Part shown: piece by piece, positions 1-7,445 of the stretch | How the letters are laid out: each line of letters begins with the position of its first letter | How positions within the stretch are numbered: the stretch's first letter is position 1 | Virus record (IMG/VR): IMGVR_UViG_2734482785_000001 | Location: 1-7,445 of that record | Strand: one strand, 5' to 3' | DNA length: 7,445 nt | Source: a virus | Lineage: Monodnaviria; Loebvirae; Hofneiviricota; Faserviricetes; Tubulavirales; Inoviridae | Notes under the pieces: generated by a model | The model's input: the letters and a program-made list of their open reading frames with translations, nothing else | Told to the model about the DNA's origin: nothing | The model's database searches: none | Translations under genes and position numbers: made by a program

Positions 1-1
1 A

Positions 2-103
2 CATTGGTACGCATAATGTAGTATGCGTTATGTTGAAAAGGCCGCTGCTAGACTTTCATCCGGCAGCGGCCTTTTTATACATAACGCCATTGTGCGTACC
101 AAA
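2..103. repeat. Long imperfect inverted repeat (hairpin) with dif-like arms enclosing a terminator stem
   Basis: Read directly: 4-18 (TTGGTACGCATAATG) is complementary to 88-102 with one T/G mismatch; 25-33 (GCGTTATGT) is complementary to 79-87; 19-24 (TAGTAT) is an unpaired bulge. 6-16 GGTACGCATAA resembles the E. coli dif XerC arm GGTGCGCATAA and 28-38 TTATGTTGAAA resembles the XerD arm TTATGTTAAAT. Confidence 0.6.
36..77. terminator. Bidirectional rho-independent terminator (9-bp GC-rich stem, A-run 5-prime, T-run 3-prime)
   Basis: Stem 40-48 GGCCGCTGC pairs with 63-71 GCAGCGGCC, loop 49-62, flanked by AAAA (36-39) and TTTTT (72-76). It lies just downstream of the minus-strand ORF ending at 108. 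Confidence 0.75.
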
Positions 104-107
104 TTTT

Positions 108-509
108 TTATTTTTCAGATTTGAATAGAGGATCTACTTTGTAGATTAAAGGAACTATTTCATAATTCATTCTTGGGAATGTCATTATCCTTATCATCAT
201 TGCTGCTTTTCTTTCATCATCGAATATGAGTGCATCCCTTAAATTTCTTGTCCATTCAGCTTTTTCACCCCCTTCAAAGTCATGCGTCAAACCCTTGAAA
301 TATAAAGCTTTTTTCTTTTTTCTTATAGTGTATGCTTTAGCTTCATTCATGACGATGTATTGAAAGTCCAGTTCTCCAATAGGGCATTCTATTAATGCTT
401 CTGTCTCTTTGATTTTTTCAACTATTCTTTCTGATAATTGTTCGCAGTCTAAGCAGTTGGCTTTTTCAATAACAACTATTTTTTTCCTTTTTCCATCTTT
501 TTTAAGCAT
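108..509 (-). CDS. Hypothetical protein (133 aa), function unknown; second gene of divergent accessory module
   Basis: Intact ATG-initiated ORF with no competing ORF, followed in its own orientation by the terminator at 36-77. Lys/Glu-rich; I recognise no family motif. Confidence 0.55.
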   Translation of the reverse strand: MLKKDGKRKKIVVIEKANCLDCEQLSERIVEKIKETEALIECPIGELDFQYIVMNEAKAYTIRKKKKALYFKGLTHDFEGGEKAEWTRNLRDALIFDDERKAAMMIRIMTFPRMNYEIVPLIYKVDPLFKSEK

Positions 510-540
510 GGTCTTTTTTCTTCATTTGGTTAAAATTTGC

Positions 541-596
541 ACCGCGAAGCGGTTCGGGGTTCTGTGACACCCGAACTTTGGTGCGGTTTCCCGCAC
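541..596. other. Cluster of three short GC-rich stem-loops in an AT-rich intergenic spacer
   Basis: H1: 541-545 ACCGC / 549-553 GCGGT, loop GAA. H2: 552-558 GTTCGGG / 570-576 CCCGAAC, 11-nt loop. H3: 581-586 GTGCGG / 591-596 CCGCAC, loop TTTC, followed on the plus strand by TTATTTTTT (597-605). Confidence 0.5.
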
Positions 597-905
597 TTAT
601 TTTTTGTATAGTCCGTTTTTTTCGTTCTCTTCATAAGCTTTATTCACTCGATCATGCCGCCTTTTTTCTGCTTCTTCGTGCGCTTCGTAGAATCGAGTGT
701 GATTCTCTGCCTCTAATGCTTTTCTTTTTATGTTGCTTACCACATCTTTAGCAGCATCTTTTGCATAATTATCAATGAGATAATTAACTATATCCGTCCA
801 CGCTATAGATGTTCCTGCTTCTTGGCTTGCATCGATAGCCAATCGTTCCATTTTGATTTTACGCTCGGCAGTAATTGCCATCGTAGTTCGCTTGAATAGT
901 GCCAT
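597..905 (-). CDS. Putative ribbon-helix-helix (RHH)-like DNA-binding regulator (102 aa), divergent from gII
   Basis: ORF on the minus strand whose start faces the gII start across a 72-bp spacer. The N-terminal region (KIKMERLAIDASQEAG-TS-IAWTDIVNYLI) fits a beta-strand/helix/G-x-S-T turn/helix pattern seen in Arc/CopG/ParD-type RHH proteins. Start codon choice (M1 vs M9) is uncertain. Confidence 0.5.
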   Translation of the reverse strand: MALFKRTTMAITAERKIKMERLAIDASQEAGTSIAWTDIVNYLIDNYAKDAAKDVVSNIKRKALEAENHTRFYEAHEEAEKRRHDRVNKAYEENEKNGLYKK

Positions 906-977
906 CTCATTTCTAACCTTTGGGTGGAATTAGGGTAGGTATCTTATCGTAATGCATGTGCTTGCGTATCTGCATGC
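906..977. promoter_or_regulatory. Divergent control region between the RHH gene and gII, with palindromic ATGCATGC-type repeats continuing into the gII 5-prime end
   Basis: 72-bp spacer between divergent starts. ATGCATG at 952-958 and TGCATGC at 971-977, with further copies at 980-987 and 1024-1032; GTATCT repeated at about 936, 966 and 989. Confidence 0.4.
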
Positions 978-2165
978 TTGCATGCATCTGTATCTGTGTG
1001 CTATAAATTTTTTATTGATATACATGCATGCAGGTATAAGGGCTTTGTTGTGTTCTACGATTGGTTGAGTATTGAACAGGATTTTGGCTACCAATTACCC
1101 ATCCTTTCAGATGTGGCTTATCAGCGTATTCATCTTGATAGCGGTGAAGCCAGTGCTTTATCTCAACCAACCTTCCAGCATCGTGGTTCTTTCTGTGATG
1201 TTGTCTCGATCTCGATCCGTGGTTCAGTGTTAAAAATGACTGGAAACCCTTCTCGCTGGGGACGTCTTGATAATCTCTTTGGCCTTCCGACTGTAGATAC
1301 TTGTGTCATGGTATTTAATCAGATTCTAACTGAACTGAAATTACCTTTATTTACCAAGTGTACAAAGTTAATGCCTGGACAATCGAAAGAGAATGAAAAA
1401 GCCCATTTGATTACTGATGGTGCTTTAATTAAAGAACTGCATATAACATCAAACAAATCAGTAGGGAAGGGGAATGAGGATGATTATATATCAGGTCTTT
1501 CTACTCAACCTTACAGGAATAGTATTCCACGGTTGCATTCCAATGGGAAATCTGTTGACTGGCTTTCAAAAAAAGGCAATGTCAATCTTATATACCCAAC
1601 AGTATATAACAAAGCTCATGAGCTTGAGTTGCATAGTCTTGCGAAAATCAAAAATAAATTCCCAGATGATTCTAAAGAATTTAATTATATAATGAATGTT
1701 ATTAATTACTGCAAGGACAACGGCATTGTCAGGTTTGAACAGAAATTAAAGTCTCGTTTTCTTCAAAAAAAATCTCTGTGCTATTGGGGACTTTCTGATT
1801 ATTCTTTGTTAAATAAGTTACATTCTGAATTTCTTGAGCTTGATGAAAAGTTATCGGTGAATGCTATGGACTTTGAAACTATTAGTGAACATCTTATTAG
1901 TCGTGGTGTTGTTGACACTACTCGTGCTGCCAATACTACAGCCATGTATGCAATTCAATGGTTTCATGGCCATTCTTTTGATTTAAATAAAAGGCAAGTA
2001 AAACAACATCGAGCAAGATTAAGAATGATAGGGATTGATATTGCTCAAAAATGTAATGTTTCCAAATTTTCTCCTGTTGTTGTGAAACAAACAAGAGAAA
2101 TAACCGTTTCGGATTGTGTTATTCCTTCTTGGTATATAAAGCCATCTTATTTACGTGCAGCTTAA
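978..2165 (+). CDS. II: Gene II-type rolling-circle replication initiation protein (pII family)
   Basis: 395-aa ORF. Recalled Ff pII-like motifs: N-terminal FIDxxxC, NPSRWGRLDNLFG (cf. ASPAKVLQGHNVFG) and VRFEQKLKSRFL (cf. VRFEARIKTRYL). Position and size match Ff gII. The start at 978 is TTG with no clear SD; alternatives are GTG 996 or GTG 1050 (the latter preceded by AAGGG). Confidence 0.85.
   Translation: MHASVSVCYKFFIDIHACRYKGFVVFYDWLSIEQDFGYQLPILSDVAYQRIHLDSGEASALSQPTFQHRGSFCDVVSISIRGSVLKMTGNPSRWGRLDNLFGLPTVDTCVMVFNQILTELKLPLFTKCTKLMPGQSKENEKAHLITDGALIKELHITSNKSVGKGNEDDYISGLSTQPYRNSIPRLHSNGKSVDWLSKKGNVNLIYPTVYNKAHELELHSLAKIKNKFPDDSKEFNYIMNVINYCKDNGIVRFEQKLKSRFLQKKSLCYWGLSDYSLLNKLHSEFLELDEKLSVNAMDFETISEHLISRGVVDTTRAANTTAMYAIQWFHGHSFDLNKRQVKQHRARLRMIGIDIAQKCNVSKFSPVVVKQTREITVSDCVIPSWYIKPSYLRAA
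1866..2165 (+). CDS. X: Candidate gene X-like in-frame internal product (C-terminal 99 aa of pII)
   Basis: In-frame ATG at 1866 (Met297 of 395) preceded by GGTGA about 6 nt upstream; proportionally analogous to Ff pX, which starts at Met300 of 410. Inference by analogy only. Confidence 0.3.
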   Translation: MDFETISEHLISRGVVDTTRAANTTAMYAIQWFHGHSFDLNKRQVKQHRARLRMIGIDIAQKCNVSKFSPVVVKQTREITVSDCVIPSWYIKPSYLRAA

Positions 2166-2178
2166 TATTAGGTGTATT

Positions 2179-2451
2179 ATGATTAAGATTGAAATTAAAC
2201 CTTCTCAAGCTGTTGTAGATACTCGTAGTGGTGTTTCTAAGAGCACTGGTAAACCATATACGATATCTGAACAGTCTGGTTATATTTTCCTCGGTGGGGA
2301 TTACCCTCAACTATTTAAAATTCCTCTTGAACAAGGCCAGGCTCCATATCCGGCTGGTTTGTATCAGTTGCATCCTTCCAGTATTTTTGTTGGTGACTTT
2401 CAAAAATTACGTATTGGTAAAATTGTTTTAATTTCTATTACAGAAAAGTGA
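2179..2451 (+). CDS. V: Gene V-type ssDNA-binding protein
   Basis: 90-aa product MIKIEIKPSQ...PYPAGLYQLHPSS... is clearly similar to recalled M13 and IKe gene V proteins. ATG at 2179 is preceded by AGGTG (2170-2174). The ORF-track start at 2155 overlaps gII and is rejected. Confidence 0.9.
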   Translation: MIKIEIKPSQAVVDTRSGVSKSTGKPYTISEQSGYIFLGGDYPQLFKIPLEQGQAPYPAGLYQLHPSSIFVGDFQKLRIGKIVLISITEK

Positions 2452-2457
2452 TAAGTT

Positions 2458-2685
2458 ATGGAATCTCATGATAAAGTTATTATTGCCTCTATTTGTGATA
2501 TTAAACCCAGTGGTGACTGTAAGGAAGTCAAGTTAACTTTTTCTGAGATTCCATACCAGCAATTCTCTGATATTGATTATTCAACATTTGCTCAATATTG
2601 GGGGGTTGCTTTTACTTCGGTTGTTGCTTTGTATTTATTTTCACATTGCATCAGCTTGATTATCAAGTTAATACGAAATGCATAA
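2458..2685 (+). CDS. Small protein with C-terminal hydrophobic helix in the gVII/gIX position (possible minor coat protein)
   Basis: 75-aa ORF between gV and gVIII; the C-terminal WGVAFTSVVALYLFSHCISLIIKL is a single predicted TM helix. Ff phages have two roughly 32-aa genes here, so the assignment is uncertain. Confidence 0.4.
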   Translation: MESHDKVIIASICDIKPSGDCKEVKLTFSEIPYQQFSDIDYSTFAQYWGVAFTSVVALYLFSHCISLIIKLIRNA

Positions 2686-2698
2686 ATGGTGGATTTTT

Positions 2699-2929
2699 AT
2701 GAAAAAGATCATTTCATTAGGTTCATTACTGGCAGCTTCATTTTCTATGCCTTCTTTTGCTGCTGAATCAGGTACACCTTCTTCAGGGGTTGATTTGAGT
2801 CAACTTACCAATTCAATTGATTTTGGTTCTGTTCTTACTGGTATTATGGCCGTAGCAGCATCATTAGTTGTACTTTATGCTGGTATTGCTGGCGTTCGTT
2901 GGATTCTTCGTACAGTTAAATCGGCTTAA
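2699..2929 (+). CDS. VIII: Gene VIII-type major coat protein precursor
   Basis: 76-aa product with signal peptide MKKIISLGSLLAASFSMPSFA and likely cleavage after SFA, an acidic/polar N-terminal mature segment, a hydrophobic core GIMAVAASLVVLYAGIAG and a basic C-terminus RWILRTVKSA. Followed immediately by a strong terminator, as in Ff. Confidence 0.85.
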   Translation: MKKIISLGSLLAASFSMPSFAAESGTPSSGVDLSQLTNSIDFGSVLTGIMAVAASLVVLYAGIAGVRWILRTVKSA

Positions 2930-2941
2930 TCTATTAAGGTA

Positions 2942-2965
2942 AGGGGAGTTCCTCCCCTTTTTTTG
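2942..2965 (+). terminator. Rho-independent terminator downstream of gVIII
   Basis: Stem 2942-2948 AGGGGAG pairs with 2952-2958 CTCCCCT, loop TTC, followed by a T-run through about 2964. Confidence 0.8.
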
Positions 2966-3015
2966 GTTATGATTTTAAATTTCTGGTATTTAATGAGTTT
3001 TTTCTGGGGACTTTT

Positions 3016-4488
3016 ATGCGCTTGGGCTGTAATCAAAGGGCTATCGCTTTAACATCTCTTTTTATATTTTTTTTCTCTTTATTAATTCCAGTGCAGAAAG
3101 TTTACTCTAATCCTTTACTTGTAACTAGGGCAGTTCTTCCAACTGTGCTTGGTAGGGTGATTTCATCTAGAGCTCTTCAGGTAACGACTACCGAATCTGC
3201 TTATTCATTAATGGTTCGGAATACATCTACAGCAGTATCTAAAACTGTGTTATCAAAATCGCCATCTATTGCCAGCAAGGGCTTTTTCCGTAGTGCTTCA
3301 GGTGCATTGACATGGGCTGGAGTTGGATATTCCGTTGGGTCTCTTACTGCTGAAAATTTTTCTGATAATGGTCGTTATTTAATTGCCACATCTGGTAAAG
3401 CTTTAGGTAACGGTAAATGGGAGGTTAATTTTGGTGATAAAACGTTTACTGTAGATTTTGAACCAACTTCTGATAATCCTTTTGTCATCAGTGCTGACTC
3501 ACTTAATATGAATAGTTATGATACTGTTGATAAGGTAAGTGCCGGTTATCGTTGGTGGCAATGTACTTATGGTACATCTTGTAAGGGGCCATTTATTGTA
3601 GGTTCTGTTACTGGGGTTGCTCAAGGATATTTTAATTCAGTTGCATCAGGTGGTGGTTTAACTTGCCGGGCACCTGATAAATCTTGTAGCTATAAGTTGA
3701 ATATTTTATCGGTAAATGAAGGACAAGAGGGGGCGGTCTCGGTTGTAAAATATATCTATACTTCTTCTTATTTAAATACAGATGGTGAGTCAATAACTAC
3801 TACTATTACTCCTATTCAGGGTATACAGGTGTATTTTAATAAGGATTTTGATAAGGCTCTAGAGGTTCTTTTTTCTGATTATAAGATGGCAACTGATGAT
3901 GATGGGTTTTCTGTTATGGATGGATTAAAGAAAGTTCCTATGGATTTGGATACTCTTGCTAAGATGATAAATAATTTATTAATGGACGCAGCATCCCAGC
4001 CAGATTATCAGGGAGTCCCTGTATCTTCAACAAATCCTGTAACATCGAATGAAATAAAAGTTGCTTATCCTAATTATGGTTCTTTGACAGAATTTGATTA
4101 TATGTATCCAGCTCAAAATTCACCATCTTCTGATGTGAATATTAGTGTGCCTGGATTTTCTTCTGGTGAATCAGGTGGCGGTTCTGATAATGGTACAAAT
4201 AATCCTGATTTTAGTCATCCAGACGTCCCTGAACCGACGCTAGATACACCACCTTCTGCGGAGGAGATACTTCGTCCAATTAAAGAACTTTTTAATCAGT
4301 ATCGAGATTTAGAAGTACGTCCATCAGGTCTTTCTGCTACATGTCCTGTTGCTAAATTTAATGTGTTTGATAGAGATTACGTTATTGATATGCATTGCGT
4401 ATTTTTGGAGGAATACCGTTCTTTTATTGGTGTCATTTCTTCTTTGATATGGGCTTTAATTTCCTTGCGTATTTTGCTTTCTACGTGA
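3016..4488 (+). CDS. III: Gene III-type minor coat / adsorption protein
   Basis: 490-aa ORF with SD GGGGA 5 nt upstream. N-terminal signal peptide, Cys pairs (WWQCTYGTSCKG, LTCRAPDKSCSY), a Gly/Ser-rich linker (SGESGGGSDNGTNN) and a C-terminal hydrophobic anchor (FIGVISSLIWALISLRILL); position after gVIII. Confidence 0.85.
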   Translation: MRLGCNQRAIALTSLFIFFFSLLIPVQKVYSNPLLVTRAVLPTVLGRVISSRALQVTTTESAYSLMVRNTSTAVSKTVLSKSPSIASKGFFRSASGALTWAGVGYSVGSLTAENFSDNGRYLIATSGKALGNGKWEVNFGDKTFTVDFEPTSDNPFVISADSLNMNSYDTVDKVSAGYRWWQCTYGTSCKGPFIVGSVTGVAQGYFNSVASGGGLTCRAPDKSCSYKLNILSVNEGQEGAVSVVKYIYTSSYLNTDGESITTTITPIQGIQVYFNKDFDKALEVLFSDYKMATDDDGFSVMDGLKKVPMDLDTLAKMINNLLMDAASQPDYQGVPVSSTNPVTSNEIKVAYPNYGSLTEFDYMYPAQNSPSSDVNISVPGFSSGESGGGSDNGTNNPDFSHPDVPEPTLDTPPSAEEILRPIKELFNQYRDLEVRPSGLSATCPVAKFNVFDRDYVIDMHCVFLEEYRSFIGVISSLIWALISLRILLST

Positions 4489-4801: not shown

Positions 4802-5839
4802 ATGCCTATTTCTGCTTATGTTGGTTCTTTAGGTAGTGGTAAATCATACGAGGTTGTTTCTAGTGTTATTGTACCTGCTTGTTCTTCTGGGCGTCGTGTT
4901 GTTACTAATATTTACGGTATAAATAAAGATAAAATTCATGCTTATTGCATGAAAAAATCAAAATCGGGGAAAGATATATCCTTAGGTGATGTTATTTATG
5001 TTTCTAATGATGATATCAAAGCTGATGATTTTTTCCCATATAAAGATTCTCGTCCTGAAGATACATTTTGTCAGTATGGAGATTTGATTGTTATTGATGA
5101 ATCCTGGCGCATTTGGGATAGTGACAAATCCATTTGTGAGAATCATCGTTCATTTATTGCAGAGCATCGTCATTTTACTAATATTGAAACTGGTGTTTGT
5201 TGTGACCTTGTTGTTATAAATCAGGAGGTTTCTTCTTTACCTCGTTTTATTAAAGCAAGGTTAGACACTACTTTTAGAATGCAAAAGCATATTGCTATTG
5301 GCATGAAGAGTCGTTATCGTGTCGATGTTTTTAATGGTTCTAAACTTTATAAGTCAAACAAGATTACAAGTTATCAGAGGAAATATAATCCAGATATATT
5401 TCCTTTGTATAAATCATATGAGAATGGGGATGGCAAAGAACTTACTGTTGATAATCGGGCTAGCATTTTAGGCAAGAAAAGTTTGTATTTTGTTGTTCTT
5501 GCTATGATTCTCATTTTCATATTTAGCATTGGTTATCTTTATAGGTTTTTTAATGGTGGTTTGGTCAAGAGTGATGCTTCTGACTTGCCGCCTCAGGACT
5601 CTAATTTCCGTTCTGTTAATTTTAATTCAGTTCCTGAAATTCCAAATACACCTAAATTATCTTCAACTTGGCGTATCGTTGGAAAACTTGAAAGAGAAGG
5701 GCGTAGTTATGTGATAATTACAAATAATTCAGGTCTTGTCCGTATGGTTCCTGCTTCTACCTTTAATTATCAAGGTGTTTTACTTACAGGAATTGTTGAT
5801 GGTGAGCTTGTTACTTTTTATTCAGGTGGTGACAAATGA
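4802..5839 (+). CDS. I: Gene I-type assembly ATPase (Zot-family P-loop NTPase)
   Basis: Walker A GSLGSGKS about 10 residues from the N-terminus (cf. M13 GKLGSGKT), Walker B LIVIDESW, and an internal TM segment LYFVVLAMILIFIFSIGYLY. ATG 4802 is preferred over the ORF-track TTG at 4790, which overlaps the gVI stop. Stop overlaps the gIV start (ATGA at 5836-5839). Confidence 0.9.
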   Translation: MPISAYVGSLGSGKSYEVVSSVIVPACSSGRRVVTNIYGINKDKIHAYCMKKSKSGKDISLGDVIYVSNDDIKADDFFPYKDSRPEDTFCQYGDLIVIDESWRIWDSDKSICENHRSFIAEHRHFTNIETGVCCDLVVINQEVSSLPRFIKARLDTTFRMQKHIAIGMKSRYRVDVFNGSKLYKSNKITSYQRKYNPDIFPLYKSYENGDGKELTVDNRASILGKKSLYFVVLAMILIFIFSIGYLYRFFNGGLVKSDASDLPPQDSNFRSVNFNSVPEIPNTPKLSSTWRIVGKLEREGRSYVIITNNSGLVRMVPASTFNYQGVLLTGIVDGELVTFYSGGDK

Positions 5840-7026
5840 AACGTTTAATATCTCTGTTCTTGATGTTTTTTAGTTTTTCTTGTTTTTCTGCTACTGAGCT
5901 TGAAATAAAAAAACTTGCTTTACCTGAGGCTATTTCTTTGATTTATTCAGAGGTCTTTAAGGTTCCTTATATGATTTCTCCTGATTTAGCCAATGACCAA
6001 CGCCTTGTTTCATTTAAAATAACCAAGGATGTTAATGAGCGTGATTTTATTGAACGTTATTTTTCTAATATGAACATTAAAATTCATACAAAAAAAGGTG
6101 TTGACTACATAACGCCTTTTAAACCTCAAGAAAAAAAAACCATTTTAAAGGTTTTTGTGTATTCTCCATTAAATCGTTCAGTTGGTTATTTGTCTGATAT
6201 TCTCTCTGGTTTTGTATCTGGTCAATTTGGAAATTCAGGAAATATAAGCACTAACATATCCAGTACTTCTTCTTCAGGGGCTTCTAATAATTTCAATAGG
6301 TTAGGTGATTCTCTTGTGTATTATGGCACACAAAAAGATATTGACATTATCAAGAGCATATTGCCAACCATTGATACGGTTCCTGATGAGGTTGTTGTTT
6401 CAGGATATGTTTTTGAGGTTCAGACTGGTCAGAATGATGGCTCAGGATTTTTACTTGCTGCTAAAGTTATATCTGAAAAATTTAATATTTCTCTTGGCTC
6501 TAACATTAGTACTTCTGGTGATTTTTTGAGTTTAAAAACAGGTTCAATTGATGCAATTTATACATTACTTTCAACTGATAACAGATTTTCTGTTGTATCT
6601 TCGCCAAGATTGCGCGTGAAGAATAATACAGAGGCTTCTTTTTCTGTAGGTGCCGATGTTCCTGTTTTAGGTAGTGTTACAGTTAATGGTAATAATTCAA
6701 CCCAGTCTGTTGAGTATCGTAGCTCAGGGGTTTTGTTTAGAGTGAAACCATCTATTAAAATCAACGCTATTGATTTGAACATTCAACAGCAGCTTTCTAA
6801 TTTTGTTGCAACTGATACTGGCGTTAATAATTCTCCGACGCTTTTAAAGCGAGATGTGACAACAGACGTTGTTATGAATGATGGTGATATTATTTTGATA
6901 GGAGGCCTTGCAGAGCAGAAGGATTCTAAATCTTCGTCTGGTTGGTCTATTTTTGGCTCACGTTCATCAGAAAATTCTAAGACAGATATTGTTGTGATGC
7001 TTCAGGTTCGCAAAGTACCAAGATGA
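5836..7026 (+). CDS. IV: Gene IV-type secretin (outer-membrane export channel)
   Basis: 396-aa ORF with SD AGGTGG upstream and an N-terminal signal peptide. Recalled pIV-like segments: VSGYVFEVQTGQ (cf. IEGLIFEVQQG), SSPRLRVKNN...VGADVPV (cf. SVPRILTLSG...VGQNVPF), DGDIILIGGL (cf. DGQTLLLGGL), and a C-terminal S-domain-like tail. Confidence 0.9.
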   Translation: MKRLISLFLMFFSFSCFSATELEIKKLALPEAISLIYSEVFKVPYMISPDLANDQRLVSFKITKDVNERDFIERYFSNMNIKIHTKKGVDYITPFKPQEKKTILKVFVYSPLNRSVGYLSDILSGFVSGQFGNSGNISTNISSTSSSGASNNFNRLGDSLVYYGTQKDIDIIKSILPTIDTVPDEVVVSGYVFEVQTGQNDGSGFLLAAKVISEKFNISLGSNISTSGDFLSLKTGSIDAIYTLLSTDNRFSVVSSPRLRVKNNTEASFSVGADVPVLGSVTVNGNNSTQSVEYRSSGVLFRVKPSIKINAIDLNIQQQLSNFVATDTGVNNSPTLLKRDVTTDVVMNDGDIILIGGLAEQKDSKSSSGWSIFGSRSSENSKTDIVVMLQVRKVPR

Positions 7027-7029
7027 GAA

Positions 7030-7071
7030 TTCTGTCCGATCCCCGCAGCTTTGCGAGGAGAACGGACAGAA
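7030..7071 (+). other. Imperfect hairpin immediately after the gIV stop (candidate terminator or packaging-signal-like element)
   Basis: Stem 7030-7038 TTCTGTCCG pairs with 7063-7071 CGGACAGAA around a 24-nt partly self-complementary loop. No T-run directly follows; AGATGA occurs at 7021-7026 and 7071-7076. Confidence 0.45.
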
Positions 7072-7129
7072 GATGAATCTTGGTTTATGGCATTTTTTAA
7101 GCAATATGACGATGTTTGTTTTATTGTTT

Positions 7130-7445
7130 TTATGCCGTCAGGCATGGAAGGCGGCATGATGATGTTTCATGTTGTGCCTTTGGTTGTCCGCCGATACCAG
7201 GGAGATATGTCATAGTGCGCGGAACAGCGCAACGCGCCCCCTGCAAAGCCGGGTTTTCATTGCAGTTATCGAGACGAACGGCGCAAGACGTGAGTCGTCC
7301 AGGCGGCGTTAATGCTTGTTGATGGAATTGATCGCTTTCATCGGGCATGACAAAATCTAAAAGCCGGTGACGGGGTTTCGTTAACTGTGGTGGTTTGTTT
7401 CTCCTGGTATCCGGCAAGCCTAAATTCCTCTTTACGGGCTGATGC
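7130..7445. other. GC-rich (about 55%) flank with no convincing ORF; host flank or structured phage non-coding region
   Basis: Hand count of 7201-7320 gives about 55-58% GC against about 32% in a gIV sample (6001-6060). The only ORFs (7116..7322 plus, 7130..7417 minus) overlap on opposite strands and have Pro/Arg/Cys-biased composition. Confidence 0.4.

Follow-up and report, generated by a model that had tools for sequence, protein, structure and literature searches.

Between gII, the replication gene of a filamentous phage, and a small gene read in the opposite direction lies a short spacer in which two kinds of repeats are crowded together. The question raised by this locus is what these repeats do. 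In a sequence-only reading, they had been proposed to be operators for an RHH repressor or, alternatively, part of the plus-strand origin. Switches in which a repressor gene, its operators, and a divergent replication gene are combined are textbook knowledge for integrating inoviruses, and filamentous prophages integrated at dif (UPphi and YpfPhi groups) are frequent in E. coli, Klebsiella, and Yersinia from clinical sources. To our knowledge, what determines whether such prophages stay silent or replicate and are secreted has hardly been studied except in CTXphi and Pf.

The phage genome and its relatives

The window, by which we mean the whole stretch of 7445 nt that was analyzed, is a complete filamentous phage genome (Inoviridae). 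Its plus strand carries gII, gV, small coat genes, gIII, gVI, gI, and gIV, with domain matches for gV (Phage_DNA_bind), gI (Zot), and gIV (secretin), and two small genes upstream of gII are encoded on the minus strand (Table 1). If1 was the sole relative at the DNA level in the phage collection (74-76% identity over gII). Closer relatives are chromosomal prophages of E. coli which adjoin hipBA (dif region). Another close relative is the 7439-nt "plasmid unnamed4" of E. coli A37 (L004, NZ_CP195780.1), which is the replicative form of a filamentous phage. Enterobacterial inoviruses that integrate at dif have been reported as UPphi (PMC7307601) and as YpfPhi/CUS-1 (PMC4266046), and the relatives of the window belong among inoviruses of this kind.

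When window positions 1-4000 were compared to E. coli genomes by megablast, 536 places were obtained (467 genomes; 422 on plasmids), mostly with 90-99% identity; the matches listed were exclusively short chromosomal ones, to window positions 4-99. Positions 1-110 form a long imperfect hairpin (single-strand fold of -38 kcal/mol, z -11.9), in which an unpaired bulge is flanked by paired arms that are like the halves of E. coli dif (GGTACGCATAAT... and ...TTATGTTGAAAA). All relatives retain it with 74-86% conservation, whichever Rep family they have, and those that are prophages adjoin hipBA/dif. The hairpin resembles a folded single-strand attP of the CTXphi type.

Start of gII and extent of the spacer

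It had been assumed that gII opens at TTG 978, that it has no clear Shine-Dalgarno (SD) sequence, and that some of the repeats fall within its first codons. None of this is borne out. An N-terminal alignment of pII homologues places the start at GTG 1050, which coincides with the ATG or GTG start of 13 relatives and is followed by (M)F(Y/F)DWL(S/T)IEQDF in all of them. In-frame stop codons are encountered 0 (L013, L017), 2 (L024), 4 (L003), and 5 (If1) codons upstream of this start. PGAP annotates a Rep of 371 aa in every E. coli prophage relative, and the nucleotide homology of three relatives begins exactly at 1051. An SD sequence precedes GTG 1050 at a distance of 7 nt (Table 1), and AAGGA or AGGGA is found at the same position in L010, L025, and L026. 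By these sequence comparisons, gII begins at GTG 1050, and with this start the repeat array is wholly intergenic, being confined to the 144-bp spacer.

Table 1. Coordinates of genes, promoter elements, and repeats in and around the divergent control region of the window.
Feature	Positions	Strand	Remarks
Two small genes upstream of gII	108-509 and 597-905 (repressor gene, next row)	-	
Putative RHH repressor gene	597-905	-	102 aa; predicted fold
Divergent control region	906-1049	.	144 bp
GTATCT, three copies	939-944, 966-971, 990-995	+	Lineage-specific
Auxiliary TGCATG copies	953-958 and 971-976 (in 952-977)	.	In the window and L002; degenerate in L010, L025, L026
gII promoter, -35 TTGCAT	978-983	+	cTTG(C/T)AT invariant in 13/13 RHH-module spacers
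Proposed operator O1, 8-bp palindrome TGCATGCA	979-986	.	Overlaps the -35; conserved block GCTTGCATGCA, 976-986
gII promoter, extended -10 TGcTATAAA	999-1007	+	Spacing to the -35, 18 nt; -10-like hexamer and T-run at this position in all relatives
Proposed operator O2, second TGCATGCA	1025-1032	.	About +10 to +18 of the gII transcript; directly 5' of the SD
gII Shine-Dalgarno AAGGG	1038-1042	+	Read from the sequence; 7 nt before the start codon
gII, rolling-circle Rep	1050-2165	+	371 aa; Pfam G2P_X_C (2.9e-24) and Phage_CRI

The repeat array and its conservation

Four copies of (A)TGCATG(C) (952-958, 971-977, 979-987, and 1024-1032) and three copies of GTATCT had been described, and all of them are present at these places. 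With both strands counted, the window has eight TGCATG matches, of which seven are located inside 953-1032. A single 100-bp span contains seven TGCATG/CATGCA starts, compared to a maximum of four in 1000 dinucleotide shuffles, and three GTATCT copies within 60 bp were reached in 1 of 1000 such shuffles. Both repeat clusters exceed chance.

Positional conservation in relatives applies to one part of the array: the two TGCATGCA words are kept, whereas TGCATG at 953 and 971 and the three GTATCT copies are not. In L010, the GTATCT positions have ATATCT/GTACCA/GTGACT, and in L025 they have ATATCA/GTGCCA/CATTCC. GTATCT, a lineage-specific repeat, was considered as a second class of operator but was rejected because this conservation is absent. 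Its first copy overlaps a conserved minus-strand TAAGAT (946-941), which is possibly the -10 of the repressor promoter, and its third copy is located inside the spacer of the gII promoter. For the promoter of the repressor gene itself, no convincing -35 could be recognized. The TGCATG copies at 953-958 and 971-976 would at best be weak or auxiliary sites, possibly acting on this promoter. More distant relatives carry a distal GTATACATGCGTGC word near their position.

gII promoter and candidate operators

Spacers from about 15 loci with this repressor family were compared in the orientation of the window. They originate from assemblies of E. coli, Klebsiella, Yersinia, Dickeya, and Providencia and from metagenomes, and 13 RHH-module spacers were aligned. 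A common skeleton is found in all of them, consisting of a -35, a -10-like hexamer, a T-run, and a TGCAT(G/A)CA-type word which occurs twice. The -10-like hexamers (TATAAA, TATTAT, TACATT, or TAGATT) are located 17-18 nt after the -35 and mostly follow TGn; in five close relatives, CTGTGTGCTATAAA (994-1007) is invariant. The gII promoter was defined from this conservation across genomes. A consensus promoter scan of positions 500-1300 returned no promoter; it missed the gII promoter because the scanner requires a T at position 6 of the -10. Judged from the position of the -10, transcription of gII probably starts at about 1014-1016. The T-run just after the -10 (1008-1013) has 5-8 T in 13 of 13 spacers, whatever the Rep family.

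In the window, L002, L006, L010/11, and L026, TGCATGCA occurs exactly twice at a distance of 46 bp, with almost no other copy there. The word at the -35 (O1) is invariant in the window, L002, L010, L025, and L026. At its position, more distant relatives with a MAIT/MAIV-type repressor have TGCATACATGCAT or TGTATGCATGCAT, and those with an ISxxQE-type repressor have TTCATGAAT. The downstream word (O2) is the center of an imperfect palindrome (1019-1038) and reads TGC(A/G)TGCA in five close relatives. In all spacers, this second word is located about 20 nt downstream of the -10 and just before the SD. Five genomes with repressors that are 87-97% identical have spacers which diverged outside GCTTGCATGCA, CTGTGTGCTATAAA, and TGC(A/G)TGCA, these three being invariant or nearly so. 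Exact 13-nt direct repeats, TGCATACATGCAT, take the place of O1 and O2 in L013 and L015.

The divergently encoded protein

The 102-aa protein has 24 homologues with lengths of 61-102 aa, which have an N-terminal domain in common (KRTTMAITAERKxKxERLAIDAS..I.WTDIVNYLIDNYAKD). As KRTT is conserved ahead of the internal Met, ATG 905 was assigned as the start. The AF2 model (monomer, pLDDT 85.6) has an extended N-terminus, a helix at residues 13-30, a short loop, and, in the long form, a helix at residues 36-101. The N-terminal 50 residues or so are the predicted DNA-binding domain with the beta-strand TTMAITAE, and residues ~50-101 are predicted to be a long C-terminal helix. The protein has the arrangement typical of RHH proteins, a beta-strand at the N-terminus and then two alpha-helices within about 45 residues.

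No curated family in Pfam or NCBIfam matched the protein above threshold. The only recurrent weak match was to ParG, an RHH protein: the Pfam E-value is 0.047 for the window protein, which is sub-threshold, as are the matches in 12 of the 25 family members (best E 0.004), and the match to PDB 1p94 has an E-value of 0.07. When the family profile was compared by hhalign to a ParG sequence, only helix B was matched (70% probability); the same comparison with a CopG sequence gave nothing. Both outcomes serve as leads only. We accept the RHH fold for this protein on the basis of the structural model, membership being by fold and not by sequence.

With the repressor as query, no relative was found among genome contigs, and one viral contig was near-identical; repressor diversity was drawn from a homologous-protein search and from the contigs encoding those proteins. 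The beta-strand variants MAITAE, MAIVAE, ISINQE, and VRITEE coincide with different repeat words, a coincidence which bears on the reading of DNA subsites by the ribbon and which is suggestive only. Where ISINQE or ISISQE replaces MAITAE, TTCATGAAT and TGAATAC words are found at both positions. A numerical score for the co-evolution of O1 and O2 (within-genome versus between-class) was 9.5 versus 8.75 of 10, which is barely discriminating because all classes share an ACATG core; the co-variation of word and beta-strand is thus drawn from few lineages. A 51-aa CDS of L004 (5437-5640, minus strand) proved to be a mis-started, distant member of this RHH family. Read from an upstream ATG, it begins with MAEKKYTSLRVPEERK, and the spacer of L004 has TGTATGCAT-type words.

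Exchange of repressor gene and spacer

The window and L002 share positions 606-1049. The relatives L003, L004, and L005 have a Rep that is 80-94% identical from 1051 and also share flanking blocks, but they carry other repressors and spacers. Homology to such relatives breaks exactly at 1050/1051 and resumes at about 605. The divergent regulator is an RstR-like HTH protein in L003 (weak phage_RstR match), a 62-aa protein in L005, and a distant RHH protein in L004. No similarity to 906-1049 was found in the spacers of these three loci. They have their own repeats at equivalent places, of the GTATCAATAC type in L003 and of the TTCTnAGAA type in L005. L016, L021, and L007-9 have an unrelated Rep (Rep_trans, PF02486), yet the TGCAT-type layout of their spacers is the same. 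As judged from these alignments, the repressor gene and the spacer (about 606-1049) are an exchangeable module, and the repeat word travels with the repressor rather than with Rep. The boundaries at about 605 and 1050 can serve as a rule for recognizing putative heteroimmune variants.

A proposed switch and its alternatives

We consider it likely, with a probability of about 0.7, that 906-1049 is a lysogeny or immunity switch and that the TGCATGCA pair represents RHH operators which silence the gII promoter. Of the two proposals made from the sequence alone, the operator proposal is thus kept for the TGCATGCA pair and dropped for GTATCT, and the origin proposal is not retained. The sequence analysis establishes the repeats and their non-randomness, the start of gII, the prediction of an RHH fold, the conservation of promoter and palindromes, and the boundaries of the cassette; binding of the repressor to the TGCATGCA words, and repression by it, are inferred from these. 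gII, which would be under the control of this promoter, heads the rightward phage genes. The two words bracket the -10, one being located on the -35 and the other at about +10/+18, so that binding of the RHH protein (905-597) to both palindromes would mask the -35 and prevent escape from the promoter. This would silence gII and the downstream genes, and the phage would be quiescent as a dif-integrated prophage. Superinfection immunity specific to the repressor/operator cassette would follow. The long C-terminal helix of the 102-aa form could join DNA-bound dimers across the two sites, and the upstream TGCATG copies may perhaps aid cooperative binding or autoregulation.

A wider reading is tentative, and taken as a whole we would sooner expect it to fail than to hold. 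According to this joint reading, RHH repressors and (T)G(C/T/A)AT operators would form a portable heteroimmunity cassette. Pfam and NCBIfam have no model for the repressor family, which is annotated everywhere as "hypothetical." The cassette would circulate in the dif-integrating inoviruses of Enterobacterales, combined with either of two Rep families that are unrelated, and 2-3 beta-strand residues would determine specificity (MAITAE for GCATGC; ISxxQE for GAATAC/TTCATGAA). The long-helix form would bridge operators 46 bp apart, and the IS200/IS605 insertion in If1 may have uncoupled the switch.

Alternatively, the words could be promoter and 5'-UTR elements only, the upstream one acting as the -35 and the downstream one as a leader hairpin or translational operator, with the divergent protein not binding to either. 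O2 would indeed be transcribed, it abuts the SD, and it centers the imperfect palindrome 1019-1038; a precedent is the Ff gene V protein (pV), which represses gII translation through the leader. However, the same word of 8-13 nt is found on both sides of the transcription start, in L013 and L015 as exact 13-nt direct repeats, and around O2 the relatives L010, L025, and L026 keep the 8-bp core only and not the extended palindrome. In addition, L003 has a gV which is 94% identical (1051-2464) but a completely different leader, and an Rfam scan gave no family match. We regard this alternative as improbable.

The chances are poorer still for binding of a host protein, that is, for the words being sites of a global regulator (as is RovA for YpfPhi) instead of a phage protein. 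RovA binds to the equivalent promoter region of YpfPhi (PMC4266046), and the AT-rich spacer would suit nucleoid proteins. A host factor is nevertheless unlikely because the words differ within one host species and persist across genera: in E. coli alone they vary with the encoded repressor (L002 vs. L003 vs. L005 vs. L007), and they are unchanged between host genera when the repressor type is the same. Moreover, a search of the window for a LexA box was negative.

We give hardly any weight to the repeats being part of the plus-strand origin, that is, repeats bound by the gII protein together with a nick site. Ff pII does bind repeats at its origin, the spacer is directly upstream of gII, and an inverted repeat (974-994/1017-1037) is present. 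The origin was rejected because the spacer is not co-conserved with Rep, a nick motif is absent, and the fold is marginal. L003, L004, and L005, with Rep 80-94% identical, share nothing with 906-1049, and the same TGCAT-type layout is found upstream of the unrelated Rep_trans in L016, L021, and L007. A search for an Ff-like nick sequence in the spacer found none, and the single-strand fold has a z of -1.9, so that neither Rep co-conservation nor a nick motif nor a stable hairpin, as expected of an Ff-type plus-strand origin, was found for the spacer. A better-conserved non-coding block (529-605) sits where CTXphi has ig-1. Located at the 3' end of the repressor gene, this block folds into three small hairpins (z -3.1) and is 81-96% identical in 18 loci; its last hairpin together with a T-run resembles a plus-strand terminator. 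A partial copy is present in one phage of the Rep_trans type (L016). Given the match in position to ig-1, the block is a candidate plus-strand origin or terminator, and by this analogy it is a better candidate for the plus-strand origin than 906-1049.

Just as improbable is that the inverted copies fold into a hairpin on the packaged single-stranded DNA and act there as a minus-strand origin or single-strand promoter. Ff does have promoter-like hairpins as its minus origins, and the arms 974-994/1017-1037 are 81% complementary, but this complementarity is automatic because the word itself is palindromic, the fold has a z of -1.9 with 7 of 200 shuffles as good (vs. z -11.9 for the hairpin at 1-110), and the copies in L013 and L015, being exact direct repeats, are poorer inverted repeats.

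Comparison with known systems

In CTXphi, the spacer between rstR and rstA (ig-2) has 138 bp and contains three RstR sites (PMC4762005). The switch proposed here resembles it in gene order: a small repressor gene and the replication gene point away from each other and are separated by a compact spacer (138 vs. 144 bp) with the promoter of the replication gene. The CTXphi spacer holds both promoters and several repressor sites; in the window, two conserved TGCATGCA words bracket the gII -10 as candidate operators. In both cases, repressor gene and spacer form a cassette which is swapped as a unit among phages that are otherwise similar and have the same replication genes. CTXphi integrates at dif via a folded single-strand attP; a hairpin of this kind is present at 1-110 of the window. 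In contrast, RstR is a helix-turn-helix protein, whereas the repressor of the window is a predicted RHH protein without curated family, and TGCATGCA, an 8-bp palindrome present on either side of the -10, is the candidate operator. Neither an RstR match for the protein nor a LexA box in the window was found, and we therefore regard the system as analogous to that of rstR and not as belonging to it.

YpfPhi, CUS-1, and UPphi have the same gII/gV replication module and integrate at dif beside hipBA; L003 is of this type. YpfPhi carries at this position not an RHH gene but the RstR-like HTH gene YPO2273 (PMC4266046), and the reverse ORFs of UPphi are listed as unknown (PMC7307601). Neither of these two papers describes operators or the RHH family of the window. 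When compared to classical RHH systems (P22 Arc/Mnt, pMV158 CopG, pSM19035 omega, F-like TraM/TraY, ParG, and the MazE/ParD antitoxins), the family differs in having no significant sequence membership (best match ParG, E 0.004-0.07, below threshold) and in its operator word and two-site layout around the -10, which are specific to this phage group.

If1 (Infulavirus) has a gII which is 74% identical, a gII promoter region homologous to that of the window (TTGTAT-17-TGaTAGATT followed by CTGCATACATGTAT), and a 67-aa RHH homologue (5119-5322, minus strand). It differs in that an IS200/IS605-family element (TnpB) separates the RHH gene from the gII promoter. In the GenBank record (NC_001954), the RHH gene is unannotated and the gII start is incorrect, as the gene starts at ATG 7316 and not at the annotated 7464. 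"ORF348" of this record is TnpB (OrfB_IS605 4.7e-33, Cas12f1-like TNB; region 5119-7316). In the classical, non-integrating If1, the repressor may have lost its connection to the operators through the IS insertion.

An omega-like RHH ORF has been noted without further analysis in the Pseudomonas inovirus PMBT54 (PMC10534721). In the literature, we found no description of the RHH family of the window, of its operators, or of its cassette behavior. The mechanism is conventional as a kind, and the repressor family is uncharacterized. For one cassette type, a concrete and testable proposal for the switch is now available, which names its promoter, a pair of candidate operators, an RHH protein as the candidate repressor, and natural variants in specificity, and the start of gII has been corrected.

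Additional observations

The ORF at 108-509 (minus strand, 133 aa) has no Pfam or NCBIfam match. At its C-terminus (WTRNLRDALIFDD...PLIYKVDPLF), it is similar to the C-terminus of a 168-aa ORF which occupies this position in L004. The closest relative, L002, lacks the ORF, which is thus a variable accessory gene.

The stretch following gIV (7027-7445) is non-coding and GC-rich in a genome with an overall GC content of 36%. Positions 7127-7415 are 78% identical to L004, and conservation is patchy elsewhere. This stretch is likely the region of the packaging signal or of the minus-strand origin.
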